The translations under genes were made by a program, and so were the position numbers. The notes under the pieces are model-generated. The model was not told where the DNA came from and searched no databases. It saw only the letters and a program-made list of their open reading frames with translations. Below, in pieces: positions 2 to 52,340 of a stretch of DNA of 64,000 nt (position 1 is its first letter; every line of letters begins with the position of its first letter). The DNA is from Candidatus Eiseniibacteriota bacterium (GTDB taxonomy: Bacteria > Eisenbacteria > RBG-16-71-46 > CAZAMP01): positions 896,001 through 960,000 of the forward strand of contig OZ245046.1 in NCBI GenBank assembly GCA_965224245.1. The letters run 5' to 3'.

Positions 2-2422
2 GCCATCGGCATCACGGTCTCCGGTGACCTCGTCTTCGTTGCATGCGACACGCAGGGTCTTCAGGTCTTCGACATCCGCGATCCATCGAACCCGGTCATC
101 GCCAATGCCTTCGTCACGCCCAGCTCCGCAATCGGTGTCGCGGTGGCCGGAGATCTCGCCTTCGTCACGGACGAGATACAGGGTCTGCATGTGATCAGGG
201 TCCGATACCCCACGAGCCCGGCGCTGGAAGGTACCTTCGTGGACTCCGACGGCATCTACGATGTCGCGGTGTCCGGAGACCTGGCGTTCGTGGCCGCGCA
301 GACCGGGTTGCTGATCATCGACATCAGTGACCCGTCCACCCCGGTCGTCATCGGCAGCTACGATACGCCGGCAACTACCGCTCACATCGCGATCGCCGGG
401 AACCTCGCCTTCCTGGCGGAGTACGACTATTCGAACTACCGATACACGCTGCTGATCGTCGACGTCACGGACCCCGCGAGTCCCGCGCTCGTCAGCTCGC
501 ATGACACGACGGACTCGATCAACAGCCTCTCCGTGGCCGACGATCTTCTGCTCGTGCAGGTCGCCTTCTCCGGATTGGAGATCTACGACGTCAGTGATCC
601 GACCAGCCCTGTGCTGGTCGGCACCAGTGGCGGTCCATTCGGCGGCAGTACCATCTACGGCCATCGTGCCTATTTCGGCGGCAGTGGTCTCGGGATTCTC
701 GACATCAGCGACCCTTCGATGCCCGTGCCGGTCGGCAGCTGCTCTCTCTTCGGAAACGGCGGCTTTGGCGTGGAGGTGGAGGGCGATCTGGCCTATCTCG
801 CAAACGGGATCTGGGGCCTCGCGGTCGTCGACATCAGTGACCCTACCGCGCCGGAGGTGCTTTCCTACACCTGGACAGAGGAGGACGCGAGCCACATCGC
901 CGTCAGCGGCAACATCGCGCTCGTCACGGATCGCAACTGGGGGCTACACGTGTTCGACATCACCGACCCTGTGAACCCGGTCCTCACCGACGTGTACGAT
1001 ACGCCGGATGATGCTCGACGAGTCGTGATCGAAGGGGAGCTCGCGTTCATCGCAGACTGGGCGGGTGGCCTGCACATTCTCCGCATCTACCAGCATGAGC
1101 TGGATACCGCGAATCACGCAGGCCAGTCTCTCCCGGTCGATGGAGCTTCCAGCACGATCCCGCGTGCTCGTGTCCTGGATGTGAGTACCGGTGTGGTCTC
1201 CTGGGAGCTGAGCGCCGACGCGGGCGCGAGCTGGACGGCCGTTGCCACGCCCGATGCATGGACACGGATCGCATCCCCGGGTGCGGATCTCCAGTGGAGA
1301 TCGTTACTCGAACTGGGTGGAGTGGGTCTGCCCACCGTGTCGGAACTCACCCTGGAGTGGCTGAACGAATCTGGCCCGGTCGTCTCGATCACCGACATCG
1401 CCGATGATCAGGGCGGCTGGGTGCGTCTGAGCTTCGGCCGCTCGGGCTACGACTTCGCCGACGAGAGCAGCCTCCCGGTGGCGACGTACCAGATCTATCG
1501 ACGCCTGGATGACGAGGTCCTTCGCCGGCAGGTGCTCGAGGACGGCCGTATGGCCGATGCCGAGGTACTGGAGCGGGCGCCGATGTCGTCTCTCCATCCG
1601 TCAGCCGTTCGGAGCTTCCGTGATCGCCTGTATGTCCTGGGCGAGGAAGGGAGCGCCAGAGGTGAGATGCCTCCCGGGGTCTGGGAGATTCTGACGACAG
1701 TCTCGGCCTTGCAGCAGGATGAGTACGTGGTAGCGGTTCCAACCCTCGGAGACTCGAGCGATGCCGGAATCGCCTGGTCGGTCAACCTCGTCACCACACA
1801 CACGACGACGCCGTCGATCTGGTTCGCCTCCGCGCCCGATAGCGGCTACTCGGTCGACAACATCGCTCCGGGCATCCCGTCGGGTCTTGCCCTGCTTGGC
1901 ACGGAGCTCTCGTGGGATGCAGCACCGGAGGATGACTTCCGGCATCACAGCGTCTATGGCTCGGAGCTGGAGGAGTTCGATCCGGCGGCCACACTGATGG
2001 GCTACACGGTCGACCCTATCTACGACGTGAGCGGTGCCTCGTACGGCTACTACCACGTGACGACGACCGATCACGTGGGCAATGAAGGGGACGCGGCCAG
2101 CGTGGAGGGAAGCCTGCTCTCGTCACCCGAGGCGCCGATCCCGATGACGTATACACTGTCCTCGCCGGGCCCGAATCCGTCTGGTGGCCGCACCGCGATG
2201 ACGTTCGCACTGCCCGAGGCGGGGAACGTGCAGCTCGCGATCTACGACGCGAGCGGTCGTGCGGTCCGGACGCTGGCCGATGGGGCGTATGCGCCCGCGG
2301 TCCATCGGGTGTTCTGGGACGCGCGCGATGACTGCGGTCGGCGCGTGGGCCCAGGCGTCTACTTCGTGCGGATCGAGGTCGGGACGTTCCATGCGGAGCG
2401 ACGGCTCACGGTGATGCGGTGA
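2..2422 (+). CDS. Secreted LVIVD-repeat beta-propeller protein with C-terminal FlgD-Ig/T9SS-like domain (5' end outside window)
   Basis: Frame open from base 2; ~42-aa repeats (V.G.LAFVA...GL.I.DISDP..P); C-terminus PNP...F.LP...V.LAIYD..GR.VRTL...WD.RD..G..V..GVYF.R. Confidence 0.85.
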   Translation, partial: AIGITVSGDLVFVACDTQGLQVFDIRDPSNPVIANAFVTPSSAIGVAVAGDLAFVTDEIQGLHVIRVRYPTSPALEGTFVDSDGIYDVAVSGDLAFVAAQTGLLIIDISDPSTPVVIGSYDTPATTAHIAIAGNLAFLAEYDYSNYRYTLLIVDVTDPASPALVSSHDTTDSINSLSVADDLLLVQVAFSGLEIYDVSDPTSPVLVGTSGGPFGGSTIYGHRAYFGGSGLGILDISDPSMPVPVGSCSLFGNGGFGVEVEGDLAYLANGIWGLAVVDISDPTAPEVLSYTWTEEDASHIAVSGNIALVTDRNWGLHVFDITDPVNPVLTDVYDTPDDARRVVIEGELAFIADWAGGLHILRIYQHELDTANHAGQSLPVDGASSTIPRARVLDVSTGVVSWELSADAGASWTAVATPDAWTRIASPGADLQWRSLLELGGVGLPTVSELTLEWLNESGPVVSITDIADDQGGWVRLSFGRSGYDFADESSLPVATYQIYRRLDDEVLRRQVLEDGRMADAEVLERAPMSSLHPSAVRSFRDRLYVLGEEGSARGEMPPGVWEILTTVSALQQDEYVVAVPTLGDSSDAGIAWSVNLVTTHTTTPSIWFASAPDSGYSVDNIAPGIPSGLALLGTELSWDAAPEDDFRHHSVYGSELEEFDPAATLMGYTVDPIYDVSGASYGYYHVTTTDHVGNEGDAASVEGSLLSSPEAPIPMTYTLSSPGPNPSGGRTAMTFALPEAGNVQLAIYDASGRAVRTLADGAYAPAVHRVFWDARDDCGRRVGPGVYFVRIEVGTFHAERRLTVMR

Positions 2423-45443: not shown

Positions 45444-46439
45444 TGTAGGGATGTCAGACCTCTTGAGACCTTTTGTGCTTCCCTGTTGTGGTCATTCTCA
45501 GGAGGTGTTCCGTGAGAAGAACTCGGTTGGCCTGGAAGAAGATGGTCCTGGAGTATGCCGAGCTCTGCGGTAGCAATGCGAAGGCCTGTCGCGAGTTCGA
45601 GGTGCCCAGGTCGACGTTCTATCGCTGGAAGAGCAAGCGAGCCCTTGGTGGTGACGGCGAGCTTCGTGACAAGAAGCCCATCGCCAAGAGCTGGCCGAAT
45701 CAGCTCTCTCCCGCAGTGGTCGAGAAGATCCTGCACCTGCGACGCACGTACCACCTTGGACCCCAGCGGATCGCCTGGTACCTCGAGCGCTACCACGGCA
45801 TCAAGACGTCGCGGGCGACGGTCTACCGCACCCTCGTTCGCAACGGCATGCCCCGGCTGCCTCGGAAGGTGGGACGGCGGGCACTCCACACCCGCCGCTA
45901 CGCGAAGCGGGTTCCTGGTCATCACATCCAGGTGGACGTGACGTTCCTGTCTCTGGCGACGACAGAGGGCAAGCGAGTTCGTCGGTATCAGTACACGGCC
46001 ATCGATGACGCCACTCGGATCCGCGCGCTGAGGATCTACGACCGCCACAATCAGAAGAACGCCATCCACTTCATCGACTACGTCGTCGAGAAGTTCCCCT
46101 TCCGCATCCACACCGTGCGCACCGATCGCGGTCATGAGTTCCAGGCCCAGTTCCACTGGCACGTCGAGGACAGGGGCATCCGCCACGTCTACATCAAGCC
46201 GCGATCCCCGCAGCTCAACGGAAAGGTCGAGAGATCCCATCGGACGGACAAGGAGGAGTTCCACCAGCTTCTGACGTACACTGATGACGTGGATCTCAAC
46301 CAGAAGCTCGAGGAATGGGAGAGCTTCTACAATCTCAGCCGGCCGCACGGAGCGTTCAAGGGCAAGACCCCCTACGAGGCGATGAGGTCTCTCTTGGAAT
46401 AGGCGTAGATGAGTCTCGCGAGGTCCGAGCTATCACACA
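45444..46439 (+). mobile_element. IS481-family insertion sequence
   Basis: TGT...ACA ends with imperfect IR (GACCTC..GAGAC); no target duplication visible. Confidence 0.8.
45512..46402 (+). CDS. IS481-family transposase
   Basis: STFYRW HTH, PGHHIQVDV, YTAIDDATR, TDRGHEF, PQLNGKVERSHRT, YN..RPH...GKTP. Confidence 0.93.
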   Translation: MRRTRLAWKKMVLEYAELCGSNAKACREFEVPRSTFYRWKSKRALGGDGELRDKKPIAKSWPNQLSPAVVEKILHLRRTYHLGPQRIAWYLERYHGIKTSRATVYRTLVRNGMPRLPRKVGRRALHTRRYAKRVPGHHIQVDVTFLSLATTEGKRVRRYQYTAIDDATRIRALRIYDRHNQKNAIHFIDYVVEKFPFRIHTVRTDRGHEFQAQFHWHVEDRGIRHVYIKPRSPQLNGKVERSHRTDKEEFHQLLTYTDDVDLNQKLEEWESFYNLSRPHGAFKGKTPYEAMRSLLE

Positions 46440-46537: not shown

Positions 46538-49500
46538 TCAACGCCAGTCACCCGCGACGACGAAGCCCGCCCAGAAGAACGGATGCGCGCTCGACCCCGA
46601 AGCCCGGCGAGCCACGAGCACGTCGAGGCTCGCCCCGCGCGCGGCATCGTCGATCGGCAGCGCCTCGACGAAGCGTTTCTGGTAGAACGCGCGCATCCAC
46701 GCCCGCGCGGACTCGTCTTCGACGGCCCAGAGGCTCATCACGATCGTGCCGACGCCGGCAGTCTCGAATGCACGGCGAAGACCGAGCACCCCCTCGCCGG
46801 TGGTGATCGTACCCAGGCCCGTGTCGCAGGCCGAGAGCACCGCCAGGTCGACCGCCGTGAGATCCAGCGACGCGATTTCCTCCGCGGTCAGAATGCCGTC
46901 CTCGTCGGCGGGTGTCGCCTCGGCGCGGAGATTGGCACCCGCCAGCGCCAGTCCGGAGAGAAGAAGCGGATTCTCTCCCGCGTCGGCACCCGGCCCCTGC
47001 GTGGCGCGAGCGACGCCGCCGATCCCTCGCCGTGACGGCGCCGAACGGCACTGTTCTCCGAGAAAGAAGCCGTGCGTTGCCAGGTGCAGAACTCGATACC
47101 CGGGGGCCGACTCCTTGAAGTGAGCCTCGCTCGCCTCGCGTCCGATCCTGAGGTACGGCTCGGGCAGTGCGGCGCGACGCCAGAGCTCGGCCACCTCGCG
47201 CGCCTCTTCCACCGCCGCAGGCAGGTCCTCGAAACGAAGCGCCCGGAAATCGCCACAAGCCGACCGCCGCCCGCGATTCCGCGGTGCCGACCCGGGCGAT
47301 GCGTGCGGAGGATCGCCCGTCCACGTCGCCGCCGCACTCGCGGGTCCAACTGGGGTCGCCGGGCCGACATGCGCCGTCGCACCGTCGGCGATCCCGAGCC
47401 GTGTTGGGTCTCCGGAGCCGGCGAACGGTGCCGGGGAGTCGAAGCTCGGGCCCCCGAGCGCGAGCAACGCCCCGGTGGAAGCGTTCCTCGGCGGTTGCAC
47501 GAGATCTCGCTCCGCGGACAGATGGTGAAGTGTAGGTCCCGTTTCGAGGAGAAAGTGCGCATCCTCGAGCGGCAGGGAGGAGAAGCTGACGAGGTGGAGC
47601 GGCCCCGCGGGTACGACGAAGACTCGACTGGCGTTTTCCAGAAGAGAGGCCAGCGGGTCCCAGATCAGCTCCGCAAGCTCCCGTCCGGCGCGGGTGTAGC
47701 GGCGCACGTCATCTCCGTCGTGACCGGGGGCGCTCCCGAACGTCGCCTCCTTGCGCCAGGTCGATATCGCGGCGTCGACCAGCGCCGCGTCTCCGATGGG
47801 GACCAAGGACACGCGACCGCCATCCGACAGCACGAAGGCGACATAGACCGGACTCCCATCTCGCAGCCCCCGGTCCGACACGTGTGCGAAGGCGATGAGC
47901 GCGGCACGCGGTTCGAGGGTCTGCATCACCTCGGACAACCCGGTTCGCTCCCGCGTCAGCTCGTGCCGAAAGGAAGCGCTTCGAGCCGCCAGCGCCTCTT
48001 CGAGCGACTCCTTTTCGTGACGAGCCGCATCGAGAGCGGTCCGGTACTCCGCGGGCTCGGCGTCCCCGATCCCGCGCACGACGAGGTCCGCCAGGCGCTT
48101 TCGCGACGCGGCGGTTCTGGCGGCGAGCTCCCGTGTCTCGGCGTCACCGGCGAGCCATACACGACGGTTGCGTGCCGCCATCTCGTCGAGGACGAGTGCA
48201 CGCGCCTTGATCAAGGCGTCCCAGGCGTCCTGGATCACGCGACGATCGCGCTGGTCGAGCGCGATGGAGATCGCAATGTCGAGCCCGGCCTCACGGTATG
48301 CGGCGTATGTCAGCGCCTCGCGTTCCGGAAGTGATCTCGACGTCAACCGGAAGTGAGCACGGAAGATCTCTTCCGACCGGAGCGCCAGGCGCGCTGCCGT
48401 GCGCCAATCACCCGTCGCCAACGAGTTGAGCGAGCGCTCTCGTAAGACCTCGCTCAGGACCGGATGCTCGGGTCCGAGAGAACGTTCGAAGATCTCCTGC
48501 GCTCGGGCGATGTGCCGTTCGCAGTCCTCGAGCTCGCCGAAGTGCGCGTGATGTCGGGCGAGCTCGAGATGTGTCTCGGCCACCTTCGGGTGCCCGTCGC
48601 CCAGCACGCCCTCACGCAGGCGCAGCGCCCGCTCCATGTCCTCTCGAACTCCGTGCACGCGACCGAGCTCGCGATGCGCCATTGCCCTCGCCGCGACGAT
48701 GCTGGCGATCTCGAGCTGGTTCGCGTCGGGATCGGCTTCGAGAATCGTGAGCGCGCGCTCGAGGTATGCGAGTCCGGAATCATACTCCCTCTGAGCGAGC
48801 AGGAGCGATCCGAGCTTCGACAATCGGCGACCCAGCCACACGCTCTCCGGTGCATGCGCCTCGCTTATCGCAACGGCACGCTCCAGTAGAAGCCGTGCAT
48901 CCTCCAGATTGCCCATCTCGGAGTACAGGACGGCCAGGTTGGACATGACCGTGGCGAGCTTCGGATGCGTCGGCGGGAGCGTCCGCTCGCGGATCCGAAG
49001 CGCCTCCTCGTATGCGCTTCTGGCCCCGGAGTAGTCTCCGGTCGTGTAGCGCAGAATGCCGAGCGAGCTGTAGTTCGCGGCCAGAATCGGGCTGTCCGGG
49101 GGGCCGTACAGCGTGTTCAGCTGGATGGCTCTTTCCAGGTAGGCATGCGCCGCATCGAGCTCGTCCGTGCGCCACGTGAGCATGCTGAGATTGCCGAGAA
49201 CGCTCGCGGCTCGGAGCGGTTCGAGGCCTGGAAGCGCGTCGTAGATCGCGAGCGCTCGCAGATAGCATGCACGCGCCACCGAGAGATCGTCGCTCTGGAA
49301 GTTCACGAGGCCGAGCGCGTTCAACGTGCGTGCCAGCTCGAGCGAGTCGACGGGCGCCGAGGCCTCCTGGATGGACAGCGCCTCCTCGAACGCCGTCTCG
49401 GCATCCGCCAGTCGACCGCGCACGCGCAGCGCGGATCCGAGATTCCTGACGCTGAGTGCAACGTCTAGGCCCGCAACGCCGACGATGGATTTCTTGATGT

Positions 49501-49819
49501 CGATCGCGCGCCGGGCGACGGCCTGTGCCTCGTCCTCGCCGGCCTTGCCACCGCGCCAGAGTGCCTCGGCGAGAAGATCGAGCACCCGGGCGGTCTCGAT
49601 CGTCCGGGCACCGGACTCGGCCTCGACGTCGGCCAGCAGCTCGCGAGCGGCGTTCTCAGCCGTCGCGTACCCGCCTTCGGCGAGCATCACGCGGATCTCT
49701 TCGAGTGGATCGAACGCGGAGCTCTCCGATGCGCTTGCCATCGTCACGATGCCGATCAGCAGCCCGACGCACAGGACCGTCGGACCTCCACTCGAGGCGA
49801 GATGCATGTCTATTCGCAT
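46538..49819 (-). CDS. TPR-CHAT (caspase-like) protease with N-terminal signal/TM segment
   Basis: HP..A TPR repeats; LHLATHG and VLSACDTGLG catalytic dyad motifs; SLW.V.D; HPFFWAGF..GD. Confidence 0.92.
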   Translation of the reverse strand: MRIDMHLASSGGPTVLCVGLLIGIVTMASASESSAFDPLEEIRVMLAEGGYATAENAARELLADVEAESGARTIETARVLDLLAEALWRGGKAGEDEAQAVARRAIDIKKSIVGVAGLDVALSVRNLGSALRVRGRLADAETAFEEALSIQEASAPVDSLELARTLNALGLVNFQSDDLSVARACYLRALAIYDALPGLEPLRAASVLGNLSMLTWRTDELDAAHAYLERAIQLNTLYGPPDSPILAANYSSLGILRYTTGDYSGARSAYEEALRIRERTLPPTHPKLATVMSNLAVLYSEMGNLEDARLLLERAVAISEAHAPESVWLGRRLSKLGSLLLAQREYDSGLAYLERALTILEADPDANQLEIASIVAARAMAHRELGRVHGVREDMERALRLREGVLGDGHPKVAETHLELARHHAHFGELEDCERHIARAQEIFERSLGPEHPVLSEVLRERSLNSLATGDWRTAARLALRSEEIFRAHFRLTSRSLPEREALTYAAYREAGLDIAISIALDQRDRRVIQDAWDALIKARALVLDEMAARNRRVWLAGDAETRELAARTAASRKRLADLVVRGIGDAEPAEYRTALDAARHEKESLEEALAARSASFRHELTRERTGLSEVMQTLEPRAALIAFAHVSDRGLRDGSPVYVAFVLSDGGRVSLVPIGDAALVDAAISTWRKEATFGSAPGHDGDDVRRYTRAGRELAELIWDPLASLLENASRVFVVPAGPLHLVSFSSLPLEDAHFLLETGPTLHHLSAERDLVQPPRNASTGALLALGGPSFDSPAPFAGSGDPTRLGIADGATAHVGPATPVGPASAAATWTGDPPHASPGSAPRNRGRRSACGDFRALRFEDLPAAVEEAREVAELWRRAALPEPYLRIGREASEAHFKESAPGYRVLHLATHGFFLGEQCRSAPSRRGIGGVARATQGPGADAGENPLLLSGLALAGANLRAEATPADEDGILTAEEIASLDLTAVDLAVLSACDTGLGTITTGEGVLGLRRAFETAGVGTIVMSLWAVEDESARAWMRAFYQKRFVEALPIDDAARGASLDVLVARRASGSSAHPFFWAGFVVAGDWR

Positions 49820-49875
49820 CGTCATCTCCTCGACGGACGGTCCGCACAATCATAGCGCAGAGGAGGGGGGGTTGC

Positions 49876-51639
49876 TCAGGGAGGGCTCGGACCGGGGTTC
49901 TCGAGCACGACTTCACGCAGCCAGACGCCTCGGACCGTCTCACGTCGGTCCGTGAGACGCTCGACCATCCCGAAGACACGGCCGACGCCGTCGCCGGTCC
50001 CCGGAGCGGCACCCGACGAGAGCCCCCCGATCCCGCGCAGCCGACCGATCGCTCGTTCACCCAGCCGAACCGCGGCAACGTCAACGGGCGCATCGGCTTT
50101 GGGCAGTCCGAGCTCGACGATCTCGCGCTCGAAGTCATCGAGCCTCTCGACGCTCGCCACGATCAGCACGTGCTCGCGTCCACCGGAAGTCGTCACCTTC
50201 CAGTAGTACTCTTCTCCGTGGAGAGGGCCCGGGAGTCGATGAGACTCGTCGGCCTTCAGGGGATTGTCGAGATCGTATCCGGGCAGTGGAAAGAGAAGAA
50301 ACGCGTCGCCGCTCTCGTCCTCCGAGACCACGTACACGTAGACATCGCGCGATGCCTGGACCACCAGGAAGAGCTCGTCTCCGGGCGACACGGTCGATCC
50401 GGGTACGAGTCGCTGCGAGGCCGCATCGGCGTGCCGGAGGAGTCGCGCCTCGACCTGATAGCTTTGACCGGCGGCGAGGAACGCTCCGGAGCGAACGAGA
50501 AGCGTGAACAGCACGATACCCGCCGCAATCAGGAGCATCCAGCGCCCACGCCGAAACGCGGGGATCGCCTCCACGCGATCGAGCGTTGCGGTAAGCGCTT
50601 CCTCCATTGCGCCGGCGCTCTCGAACCGCTCCTGGGGATCGGACGCGAGTGCGCGCTCCACGGTCTGCGCGAAGGCAGGGATGACGTCGGGCCTGGCATC
50701 GCGGAGCAACGTCTTGCGTCGTTCGGCGTGCGCCTGGCGCAGCTCGCGGAGGCTCTTCGCCTCGACCGGGTACGCTCCGGTCACCAGATGATGAAGGAGC
50801 ACACCGAGCGAGTAGAGGTCGGACCGAGGACTGGCGACGCCGTCGCGGAGCACCTCGGGCGCCATGTACAGCGGCGTGCCCGCTCTTCCGTGCACCTCGG
50901 CACCACCGTCGGGCGCGTCCTCATCGATCTCACGTCCGATGCCGAAGTCCATCAACACGATCCGGCCTCCGGCCTCGCGCATGACGTTCTGTGGCTTCAC
51001 GTCACGGTGAACGAGACCCGCGGCGTGCACGGCCGCCAACGCTCGACAGACGTCGACGCCGATGAGGGCCGCTTCGCGCGGGCTGAAGCGTCCGCGCGAA
51101 GCCAGAATCTCCTCGAGGGATTCCCCGCGGACGAGCTCCATCCAGATCCCGATCATCCCGTCGCGCGCATCGGCCCCGTGCACGGTCACGACGTTCGGGT
51201 GTCGAATGCGGGCGAGACGCCTCCCCTCGTCCACCACGGCCGGCACGGCGTCGGTCTCTGCAGGGTCGGAGGTCGTGCGATCGGGTCCCGCCCGGGGTCT
51301 GATCAGCTTCAGCGCTACCTCCCGCACGAGGCGCGCATCCCGGGCTCGATAGACCTCTGCAAACGACCCGGTCGCGATCCTGTCGATGATCTCGAGATTA
51401 CCCCAGCGCCACGGCATGGTGACGTCCAAGGGATCGTCGGGCCACTGCTCACCCGGAGGTTCGCCGATCCAGGCCTGGGATCGATGGAACTCGGCGATGC
51501 CCTCGACCACACGGAGCAAGTGCAGCGTGTCCCGGTCGCCCGGACCCACGCACGCGTCCTCGACCGCGTCCCAGTCGATGGCGCGGCCGTCCGAGATCGA
51601 CGCGGCGAGATCGATCAGTCGATTCTCTCCGGCGCTCAT
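49876..51639 (-). CDS. Ser/Thr protein kinase with TM helix and DUF4384-like extracytoplasmic domain
   Basis: VALK, HRDVKPQN, DFG, GTPLYMAPE; TM WMLLIAAGIVLFTLLV; PGDEL...YVYVV.ED..G...LLFP...G.E..LIVAS. Confidence 0.88.
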   Translation of the reverse strand: MSAGENRLIDLAASISDGRAIDWDAVEDACVGPGDRDTLHLLRVVEGIAEFHRSQAWIGEPPGEQWPDDPLDVTMPWRWGNLEIIDRIATGSFAEVYRARDARLVREVALKLIRPRAGPDRTTSDPAETDAVPAVVDEGRRLARIRHPNVVTVHGADARDGMIGIWMELVRGESLEEILASRGRFSPREAALIGVDVCRALAAVHAAGLVHRDVKPQNVMREAGGRIVLMDFGIGREIDEDAPDGGAEVHGRAGTPLYMAPEVLRDGVASPRSDLYSLGVLLHHLVTGAYPVEAKSLRELRQAHAERRKTLLRDARPDVIPAFAQTVERALASDPQERFESAGAMEEALTATLDRVEAIPAFRRGRWMLLIAAGIVLFTLLVRSGAFLAAGQSYQVEARLLRHADAASQRLVPGSTVSPGDELFLVVQASRDVYVYVVSEDESGDAFLLFPLPGYDLDNPLKADESHRLPGPLHGEEYYWKVTTSGGREHVLIVASVERLDDFEREIVELGLPKADAPVDVAAVRLGERAIGRLRGIGGLSSGAAPGTGDGVGRVFGMVERLTDRRETVRGVWLREVVLENPGPSPP

Positions 51640-52229
51640 TCGCGCATCTCCCTGGCGAGCTTCACCAGCGCTCGCGATACCGTCATGCGGGCTGCGTCGG
51701 CCGACGACTTGCTCAGCGCTACGGCAATGTGGCCGTAGCTACAGCCCATCTCGATCCGTGCGATGACCGCTTCGCGCTCGACCTCGCCGAGGCGCGCGAG
51801 CGCGGACTCGTATCGCCCGACCATCTCGCGTCCGATCGTCTCGTCGAGTGGAGACGGAGTTCGATCGTGATCCGAGTGCCAGATCTCATCCGGACCCGGC
51901 GCCCGGGTCGCACGACGCACCTCGTCGCGGATCCGGTTCAGAACGGCTTGCCGCATGTACGCCTGAAGCGCCCCCTCGCCGCGGTTCTGGAAGTCGTCAA
52001 TCCGGTCGAGGGTGCGAAGCACCGTGTCTTGCACGAGGTCGTCGGTATCGAGAAGGCCGCGCGCGCGGTTCGGGAGTCGGCCGGACGCCCATCGGCGCAG
52101 CCTCGGAAGGTAGCGTGCGCAGAGGCGGTCCAGGGCTCCTCGATCGCCCCGTCTGGCGAGCTCGAGAAGCTCGACGGACGACTCCATCGGGTTCCCGGCG
52201 TGATCGGGGGTCCGGTCGTCTCCGGCCAT
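51636..52229 (-). CDS. ECF sigma factor, stop overlapping the kinase start
   Basis: G...AL..L..RYLPRL.RWA, LLDTDDLVQD, NRIRDE.RR, DAARMTVSRAL; ATGA overlap at 51636-51639; start uncertain. Confidence 0.9.
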   Translation of the reverse strand: MAGDDRTPDHAGNPMESSVELLELARRGDRGALDRLCARYLPRLRRWASGRLPNRARGLLDTDDLVQDTVLRTLDRIDDFQNRGEGALQAYMRQAVLNRIRDEVRRATRAPGPDEIWHSDHDRTPSPLDETIGREMVGRYESALARLGEVEREAVIARIEMGCSYGHIAVALSKSSADAARMTVSRALVKLAREMRE

Positions 52230-52340
52230 CCTTCCGTCCGCTCCAGGGTTCGCGCCGAACTGCGCGGTCAATCATACCCAGGATGACGGCTCGTGCCCGC
52301 TACCAAATCGACGAACCCGACCAGATTCGCTCGCTCGTCG

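Follow-up and report, generated by a model that had tools for sequence, protein, structure and literature searches.

How a sigma factor of the extracytoplasmic function (ECF) type might be controlled from outside the cell in a locus that carries no anti-sigma gene is the question raised by a three-gene cluster of Candidatus Eiseniibacteriota bacterium (GTDB lineage Bacteria; Eisenbacteria; RBG-16-71-46; CAZAMP01). The window analysed here, namely the whole stretch of 64,000 nucleotides at positions 896,001 to 960,000 of contig OZ245046.1 (assembly GCA_965224245.1), holds at 46538..52229 the genes for an ECF-type sigma factor, a single-pass Hanks-type Ser/Thr kinase, and an exported protease composed of tetratricopeptide repeats (TPR) and a CHAT domain. 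The original prediction, drawn from the sequence of the window, had proposed that an RGIGG motif common to kinase and protease is a self-processing or pseudosubstrate site in the protease and a substrate site in the kinase, linking extracytoplasmic cleavage to kinase and sigma factor activation. This interpretation was partly supported. The module and its shared motif can be regarded with high confidence as real and functionally linked, and the three neighbouring genes are, as judged from their homologues, a conserved envelope signalling unit. We give an even chance to a reading in which the motif-bearing linker of the kinase is a recognition site of the protease, and probably its cleavage site too, mimicked by the protease's own loop, cleavage being the step that we infer.

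The three genes are arranged head to tail on the minus strand, on which all features described below lie unless stated otherwise. The sigma factor gene occupies 51636..52229; its longest open reading frame (ORF) extends to 52271, and the ATG at 52229 is the likelier start because the TTG at 52271 falls within a TATGAT -10-like box (52271..52276, direct reading). The kinase gene (587 aa, 49876..51639) overlaps the sigma factor stop with its start in an ATGA, and the protease gene (46538..49819; up to 1103 residues, longest ORF to 49849, ATG codons at 49825 and 49819) begins, when read from the ATG at 49819, 56 nt past the kinase stop. The trio, the overlap, and the spacing were as originally described. 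So was the lack of an anti-sigma factor: no such gene was found in the cluster, and none of the three proteins matched an anti-sigma family among the family profiles.

The kinase possesses the expected catalytic motifs (VALK108, HRDVKPQN211, DFG231, and APE260) within a cytoplasmic kinase domain (residues 84-345, 50605..51390; Pkinase, 144.4 bits) that is preceded by an 83-aa N-terminal extension. Since the single transmembrane (TM) helix read directly from the sequence (residues 366-391, 50467..50544) is Arg-rich on its N-terminal, cytoplasmic side, the protein is predicted to be oriented N-in/C-out, so that a DUF4384 beta-sandwich (residues 417-497, 50149..50391; PF14326, 53.7 bits against a cut-off of 27) and the tail behind it face outward. 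The position of the kinase motif LRGIGGL (50020..50040; RGIGG = residues 535-539) was confirmed, whereas its assignment to the kinase domain proper was not: it sits in the extracytoplasmic part, beyond both the TM helix and DUF4384, as a candidate recognition or cleavage site around Arg535. In an AlphaFold2 (AF2) model of the ectodomain, strands 14-116 form the beta-sandwich with a predicted local distance difference test (pLDDT) score of about 90, and a C-terminal hairpin (strands 187-201, likewise about 90) folds back onto it, with the motif falling in a segment of pLDDT <50 between these two confident elements. The 52 residues that follow Arg535 (49879..50034) include this beta-hairpin (..RGVWLREVVLENP), which is apparent both as AF2 strands and in the kinase ectodomain alignment, where it is conserved. 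A PDB fold search with the ectodomain model returned no match at E<=1e-3, only generic immunoglobulin-like sandwiches.

Is the shared motif more than a coincidence? The kinase and the protease of the window have two pentapeptides in common, ESLEE and RGIGG. When both proteins were shuffled 2000 times, a mean of about 1.9 pentapeptides was shared and 83% of the shuffles shared at least one; when only the ectodomain and the CHAT domain were compared, 18% did. By itself, the pentapeptide shared by this pair does not exceed the chance level and carries little weight. As a conserved feature of both families at fixed positions across homologues, on the other hand, the motif is far beyond chance. In a profile search of the ectodomain against 1.84 billion cluster representatives, 3475 proteins passed E<=1e-3; the number fell to 1326 at 1e-10 and to 697 at 1e-30, the last figure being taken as the family count in clusters. 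Among the best 150 representatives, the motif Arg was present in 150/150, as one of only 5 invariant positions of 188, and was accompanied by Leu at P2 in 139, by Gly (134), Ser (13), or Ala (3) at P1', and by Gly at P3' (147) and P4' (127). The ectodomain family keeps L-R-G-[IV]-G-G-[LV] in a linker predicted to be flexible, and an invariant residue in such a linker has the look of a site for recognition or cleavage. The last 52 residues of the sensor would be released by a cut after Arg535.

The protease scored 203.7 bits for CHAT (PF12770; cut-off 24) and 168.7 bits for TPR_12. Its TPR region (TPR_12, TPR_10, and others) spans about residues 130-500 (48350..49462), and its CHAT domain residues 720-1101 (46547..47692), on the evidence of the Pfam match, an AF2 model with a mean pLDDT of 76.7, and Foldseek. 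The fold matches of this domain were led by Csx29 (8eey_B, E 3.7e-10) and included DdvA in fourth rank (8rot_A, 3.9e-7) as well as separase and gingipain R (<1e-3). On these similarities the protein is a member of the CHAT protease family with the caspase fold of clan CD, and peptidase activity is predicted. The catalytic dyad, His926 (HLATHG, 47072..47074) and Cys1008 (LSACD, 46826..46828), was invariant in 23/23 aligned CHAT domains. Between these two residues, exactly where it had been reported, lies the loop motif RRGIGGV (47012..47032; RGIGG = residues 941-945), whose Arg941 stands at His926+15 and 67 residues before Cys1008. This Arg was invariant across the same 23 domains, the loop that carries it was modelled with pLDDT <50, and the motif was present in 25 kinase-linked CHAT proteins, plus further ones.

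The hydrophobic N-terminus claimed for the protease was also borne out. A signal-peptide-like segment (MRIDMH...MASA|SE, 49730..49819; hydrophobic 15-mer score 2.47) has counterparts in 22/24 complete homologous N-termini, several of them lipobox-like with a Cys. Moreover, two Cys residues flank the loop region, Cys934 (47048..47050), seven residues ahead of the loop Arg, and Cys865 (47255..47257); both are near-invariant, being conserved in at least 90% of the 23 aligned rows, and probably form a disulfide. The signal-like N-termini together with this Cys pair support an extracytoplasmic, exported protein. A lineage-specific Pro/Ala/Gly-rich insert, about 50 residues long and placed before Cys865 (47255-47419), is modelled as disordered and was absent from the 22 other aligned domains.

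To place the cluster among its relatives, homologous loci were collected from a scan of species-representative genomes with ectodomain alignment (21 loci), from a metagenome scan (50 more), and from same-class relatives (17 more, with the fourth pair of the own genome in addition). The 21 species-representative loci were labelled Eisenbacteria, Vicinamibacteria, other Acidobacteriota, one Fibrobacteraceae-labelled bin, and two Planctomycetota. Linkage was counted over 92 loci with an ectodomain match, near-duplicates included. Of the 60 loci whose upstream sequence reached at least 2.6 kb, 58 had a homologous ECF gene directly upstream of the kinase gene, both exceptions being Planctomycetota; a CHAT homologue was present in 22 of the 29 whose flanks extended at least 6.5 kb upstream and 5 kb downstream. 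Its gene was found downstream, upstream on the same strand, or divergent, and these three arrangements mean that the linkage is not that of one frozen operon. No other conserved gene was seen in the homologous loci. The pattern R-[GSA]-[VIALM]-[GA] was recovered at the aligned place of the kinase in 72/74 loci, the remaining two ending at contig edges; in 18 loci from same-class relatives, the motif was canonical in 14, varied in two (RGIAS and RGVTG), cut in one, and missing in one (L097).

The own genome, with 16 CHAT matches and 6 DUF4384 matches, was shown to contain three ECF-kinase(DUF4384)-CHAT triplets, in which the kinase motif LRGIGGL is paired with RRGIGGV in the CHAT protein, RRSIGGL with TRSIGGL, and LRGAGAI with LRGAGEI. 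These paralogues gave the earliest hint that the motif belongs to the module as such. The same genome has a fourth ECF-kinase(DUF4384) pair (L105, C1:5266615-5285163), which bears HRGVGGL with no CHAT gene within 9 kb. Elsewhere (L013, C1:3950047-3953277), an ECF gene is accompanied by that of an anti-sigma-like 302-aa membrane protein with a periplasmic DUF4384 from which the motif is absent; this pair lies ~4.3 kb from another TPR-CHAT gene, whose product likewise has a loop without the motif. In the third paralogous cluster (L106, C1:5479700-5481800), the gene of a secreted 544-aa protein with a FlgD_ig-like C-terminus (249-1883, plus strand) is inserted between the kinase and CHAT genes.

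The original prediction had called for a comparison of the motif in both partners across homologous loci. For this purpose, 27 cognate pairs were chosen for a motif match in both partners. Over the module as a whole the motif reads x-R-[GSA]-[VIA]-G-G-[LVI], with an invariant Arg, in the kinase linker and in the His-to-Cys loop of the CHAT protein, and the partner CHAT proteins of all 27 pairs keep x-R-[GSA]-[VIA]-G-G-[LV] ~15 residues past the catalytic His. Across nine positions, 22 non-identical cognate pairs gave 116 identities versus 99.5 +/- 4.0 for shuffled partners (P about 1.5e-4), and the full 27 pairs, five having been added, gave 146 versus 122.5 +/- 4.6, a value reached in 0/20000 shuffles. 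The positions behind the signal were P1', where Gly goes with Gly and Ser with Ala or Ser, P2' (Ile/Val/Ala), and P5' (Leu/Val/Ile). The motif is thus conserved in both partners, and cognate copies are more alike than shuffled ones; this co-variation is suggestive, lies at the level of clades, and was not confirmed once relatedness was considered. Of the outcomes that the original prediction had named as refuting it, none arose in this comparison.

The P2 residue (kinase, 50038-50040; CHAT, 47030-47032) differed between the two sides, being Leu in 25/27 kinases versus Thr in 14/27 and Leu in only 4 of the CHAT loops. Judged from these sequences, the difference might separate a good substrate from a poor one, i.e., a pseudosubstrate. 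Two pairs in which the CHAT protein is encoded away from the kinase also had motifs that resemble each other, namely LRGIGAL/TRGIGLL (L091/L115 in G033), both of which depart from Gly-Gly, and LRGVGGVAP/ARGVGGVEP (L089/L127 in G036). A motif scan over the six-frame ORFs of the own genome gave 580 loose and 11 strict matches, four of the latter in these modules, and revealed no convincing extra exported substrate.

The phyletic distribution was surveyed in 41 genomes, the window's own and 40 of its class, with E<=1e-40 as the threshold for the CHAT subfamily. The kinase ectodomain family was detected in 14/41 genomes and the CHAT subfamily in 17/41; both occurred in 12 genomes, the kinase only in two, the CHAT protein only in five, and neither in 22 (Fisher P 5e-5, an overstated value inasmuch as relatives are not independent). 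The loops were read in the 30 best of 43 CHAT matches, within which motif-bearing CHAT proteins were found in 10 of the 14 kinase genomes and a degenerate one in one further genome. The kinase genomes for which those 30 matches included no such protein were G012, G017 (78% complete), and G024, which is 70% complete and yielded no CHAT of the subfamily. The motif-less kinase mentioned above (L097) belongs to a kinase-only genome that is 92% complete and in which no CHAT of the subfamily was found. Conversely, the loop motif was absent in four of the five CHAT-only genomes and ambiguous in one. Within the own genome, a long motif-bearing loop was present in 5/16 CHAT proteins, and three of these five adjoin a kinase, compared with none of the other 11. 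Because the loop motif tracks the presence of the kinase, this distribution argues for a partner-linked mimic, and the loop copy looks, from its occurrence, like such a mimic rather than a general maturation or self-activation site. An obligatory self-activation site of the whole CHAT subfamily was rejected as a general rule, as relatives in kinase-less genomes lack the motif.

The sigma protein scored 37.4 bits for Sigma70_r2 (cut-off 24), 25.1 for Sigma70_ECF (21.1), and 63.7 for TIGR02937 (42.9), while region 4_2 scored 19.5, under its cut-off of 25.7, yet aligned over residues 154-205. By these profiles the protein is an ECF-type (group 4) sigma factor with regions 2 and 4 only. The best NCBIfam subfamily was TIGR02984 (Planctomycete type) with 77.9 bits, under its cut-off of 183.75. 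Region 2.2 reads DTDD in place of the canonical DAED and offers Thr76 (codon 52044..52046) as a candidate phospho-acceptor; in agreement with the emphasis originally placed on this residue, the Thr was kept in 54 of 55 aligned module ECFs and replaced by Ser in one, within a consensus [DEQ]-T-x-D that retains the first and fourth acids. The protein has ECF43-like traits, an adjacent Hanks kinase gene and no anti-sigma gene; membership of ECF43 was not accepted, as the acidic residues of region 2.2 are retained (DTDD), whereas those of EcfP are lost (STTA). Other kinase-linked ECF groups have been described whose stretch is still DAED-like and has a Ser or Thr within it or close by (PMC8999054), and the module sigma factor, as read from its alignment, fits that remark. 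As for its own expression, no shared ECF-type -35/-10 promoter was recognised in the upstream regions of the homologous ECF genes, and the TATGAT hexamer was found in 23/47 of them, with TATCAT recurring as a variant; from these two facts, the operon may be transcribed by the housekeeping sigma factor, without autoregulation.

Taken as a pathway, the preferred reading would run as follows. The substrate cleft of the protease would recognise the motif, and the kinase linker would be the substrate, cut at or beside the invariant Arg with loss of the last ~52 sensor residues. The protease's own loop would sit in that cleft in cis and act either as a pseudosubstrate that autoinhibits the enzyme or as a site of self-cleavage; the C11 peptidases, which self-cleave in the same post-His loop, are a parallel case. 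An outside cue, probably sensed by the TPR part, would free the protease, and trimming of the sensor would lift its restraint on the kinase; given that PknS, a kinase of Xanthomonas citri, is apparently restrained by its periplasmic domain, activation by sensor trimming is plausible. The kinase would then phosphorylate the conserved Thr of sigma region 2.2, and the phosphorylated sigma factor would engage RNA polymerase without any anti-sigma factor. The direction of control, from protease to kinase, is the one that we infer. In its widest form, the proposal is of a protease-gated receptor kinase, in which an irreversible cut outside the cell is passed to the kinase and by phosphorylation to the sigma factor, the autoinhibitory loop of the protease mirrors a 7-residue site, matched protease-kinase pairs allow several units to work side by side in one cell, and DUF4384 is a general partner or substrate domain of caspase-fold proteases. 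The last element is drawn from the occurrence of DUF4384 in kinases, anti-sigma factors, Csx30, and orthocaspase fusions alike. We put this wider picture forward tentatively, as possible rather than probable.

Several points weigh against such a pathway. Cleavage, and with it the bond that would be cut, is a prediction from sequence and models, and an acidic S1 residue could not be identified in this CHAT domain; the characterised Craspase CHAT proteases, for their part, cleave after Met or Leu, not Arg (PMC11506125). Seven of the 29 well-flanked loci had no CHAT gene nearby, and subfamily CHAT proteins without the loop motif exist, so that the loop copy is dispensable for folding or basic activity. 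The partner shuffles ignore relatedness, and the motif variants fall into a few clades on the kinase-ectodomain tree. An independent-contrast test on that tree of the 27 pairs, computed with the motif masked and with L104 left out for its frameshifted kinase, provided 1-2 contrasts when only well-supported branches were used and 3-6 with every branch included, too few for significance, most of them in the same direction; within the own genome, the cognate pairing of the three paralogues tied with one two-paralogue swap (18 vs 18), which gives no support to insulation between them. In the sigma factor, DTDD keeps two acids of DAED, whereas EcfP has STTA with the phospho-Thr in third rather than second position (PMC8999054). 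Finally, activation of the kinase by trimming is a guess, as its silencing would be.

The same motif might instead be an epitope bound by the TPR groove, or by the catalytic cleft acting as a binding site, for which loop and kinase linker compete, the sensor being reversibly sequestered and released and any proteolysis being aimed at other targets or lost. TPR domains are peptide-binding modules, and docking of this kind would account equally for the conservation, the co-variation, and the phyletic data, with the preference for Leu at P2 in kinases (25/27) and Thr in CHAT loops (14/27) being as expected for two affinities. The invariance of the catalytic His and Cys in 23/23 domains argues, however, for retained catalysis, and an invariant Arg in a flexible loop beside the active-site His takes the position of C11 self-cleavage (PMC4850288); we consider docking without cleavage unlikely. 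Control might also run in the reverse direction, with the kinase linker as a membrane-tethered pseudosubstrate or anchor that keeps the protease inactive at the inner membrane, the output being proteolysis of other envelope proteins, which kinase and sigma factor would only report or induce. The TPR-CHAT proteins of the own genome (16 matches) do outnumber its kinases of this type (4), two of its five motif-bearing CHAT proteins are encoded away from kinases, and securin-type pseudosubstrate inhibition is established for separase (PMC11506125). Yet the motif scan of that genome yielded no further convincing exported targets, and the close operon linkage with a sigma factor whose Thr is conserved points to transcription as the output, which makes the reverse direction rather improbable in our estimate.

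A further possibility is that a third, unlinked enzyme, such as an envelope protease or a processing or sorting enzyme, reads the motif in both proteins, and that the CHAT protein does not. Nothing specific speaks for such an enzyme except that a Gly-rich motif could suit other peptidases, and it would leave unexplained the loop copy beside the CHAT active-site His, the likeness of cognate copies, and the tracking of the kinase by the loop motif, with no third conserved gene in the loci to supply it; we think it very improbable. Least credible, to the point of being negligible, is that two Gly/Arg-rich proteins encoded in a genome of high GC content resemble each other by chance or composition and are functionally unconnected. 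The shuffles described above, with about 1.9 shared pentapeptides on average and at least one in 83%, are as such an account would have it, and the motif is not rare in the six-frame translations of the own genome, but a fixed aligned position with an invariant Arg across hundreds of divergent homologues is not, nor is the phyletic pattern.

Recognition and probable cleavage of the kinase linker by its partner protease, the reading retained here, can be set beside several known systems. Kinase-linked ECF groups comprise ECF43, with EcfP/PknT of Vibrio parahaemolyticus and EcfK/PknS of Xanthomonas citri, and ECF59-62, 217, 267, and 283 (PMC8999054, PMC7826278, PMC13147305). In EcfP, the second Thr of the STTA stretch is phosphorylated by PknT (PMC8999054), and the corresponding residue of EcfK, Thr51, is the one that PknS phosphorylates; PknS has an 83-residue N-terminal extension, and its periplasmic domain seems to restrain autophosphorylation (PMC13147305). 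Like both pairs, the module has an ECF gene directly beside that of a single-pass Hanks kinase, no anti-sigma gene, and a conserved Thr in the sigma 2.2 stretch contacting the beta' subunit, and its kinase resembles PknS in an N-terminal extension of about 80 residues. Unlike EcfP, it keeps two acids in the D-T-x-D stretch, with Thr at the second position, not the third; unlike both pairs, its sensor is DUF4384 rather than TPR, and it adds a partner protease with a matching motif, none being described for either pair in the available parts of those sources.

Craspase, the type III-E system of Csx29, Csx30, Csx31, and RpoE, offers the nearest likeness on the protease side, in that a TPR-CHAT protein cuts the flexible linker of its partner and thereby alters an ECF-type sigma factor; for the module, cleavage is the predicted counterpart. 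Csx30, the substrate of Csx29, binds the ECF-type RpoE, and some Csx30 C-terminal domains are DUF4384 (bioRxiv 10.1101/2022.08.17.504292). Craspase nevertheless works in the cytoplasm, is guided by RNA (Cas7-11), and cleaves after Met or Leu, whereas the module protease is predicted to be exported and has a kinase as its partner where Craspase has a sigma-binding protein; the residue conserved in the module is Arg, after which separase cuts (PMC11506125). No CRISPR genes were seen in the cluster, although no search aimed at Cas7-11 or a CRISPR array was made. DdvA, a periplasmic TPR-CHAT protein fused to an anti-sigma factor, for which self-cleavage has been proposed and is unproven (PMC11506125), is similar in coupling a periplasmic TPR-CHAT part to an ECF sigma factor and in the first step proposed for both, a proteolytic cut in a juxtamembrane linker. 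It differs in being one polypeptide (zinc-binding anti-sigma domain, TM helix, TPR-CHAT) that acts via sequestration and RseP; the CHAT protein of the module is separate and exported, with only a signal-like segment before the TPR and no anti-sigma domain, and a kinase would carry the signal.

The loop itself recalls the C11 peptidases of clan CD, which have a basic residue about 14-15 residues past the catalytic His, the place of Arg941 here. PmC11 (His133, Cys179) is activated by self-cleavage at Lys147, which relieves autoinhibition, and clostripain is cut at Arg181 and Arg190 (PMC4850288). The module protease belongs, however, to the CHAT family and not to C11, the S1 Asp two residues before Cys in PmC11 is Ser here (LSAC), self-cleavage is only predicted, and relatives from genomes without the kinase lack the loop motif. 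Parts of the module have been recorded in other settings, such as TPR-CHAT genes in the ECF54 context and DUF4384 in ECF25 anti-sigma factors (supplement of PMC7826278), DUF4384 fused to orthocaspases (PMC7475262), and DUF4384 as the accessory domain of one kinase family in a kinome atlas in whose main text the words CHAT, ECF, and sigma do not occur (bioRxiv 10.1101/2025.01.12.632604). The arrangement of the module matches none of the systems compared, and no published description of it was found in the literature on DUF4384, kinase-linked ECFs, and CHAT proteins, the supplement of PMC7826278 being covered in part.

Knowledge is scarce both of the stimuli perceived by bacterial receptor Ser/Thr kinases and of the triggers of kinase-dependent ECF sigma factors, and substrates are mostly missing for bacterial CHAT and caspase-like proteases. 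To both topics the module brings a defined 7-residue candidate site in a defined partner, in a sizeable family whose 697 clusters are spread over Eisenbacteria, Acidobacteriota (Vicinamibacteria), and further lineages. A cut at this site would make the module the first case in which a protease provides the input of a bacterial Hanks kinase, and DUF4384 would be tied to caspase-fold proteases across several systems.

The genes that flank the cluster are unrelated to it, encoding secreted BNR/FlgD_ig and Sortilin-Vps10 proteins and an rve-type transposase. The transposase gene (rve/HTH_32, 309 aa, 45473-46402, plus strand) converges on the 3' end of the CHAT gene and places an insertion sequence beside the module. 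FlgD_ig-like C-terminal domains also end many of the secreted proteins encoded around the window.

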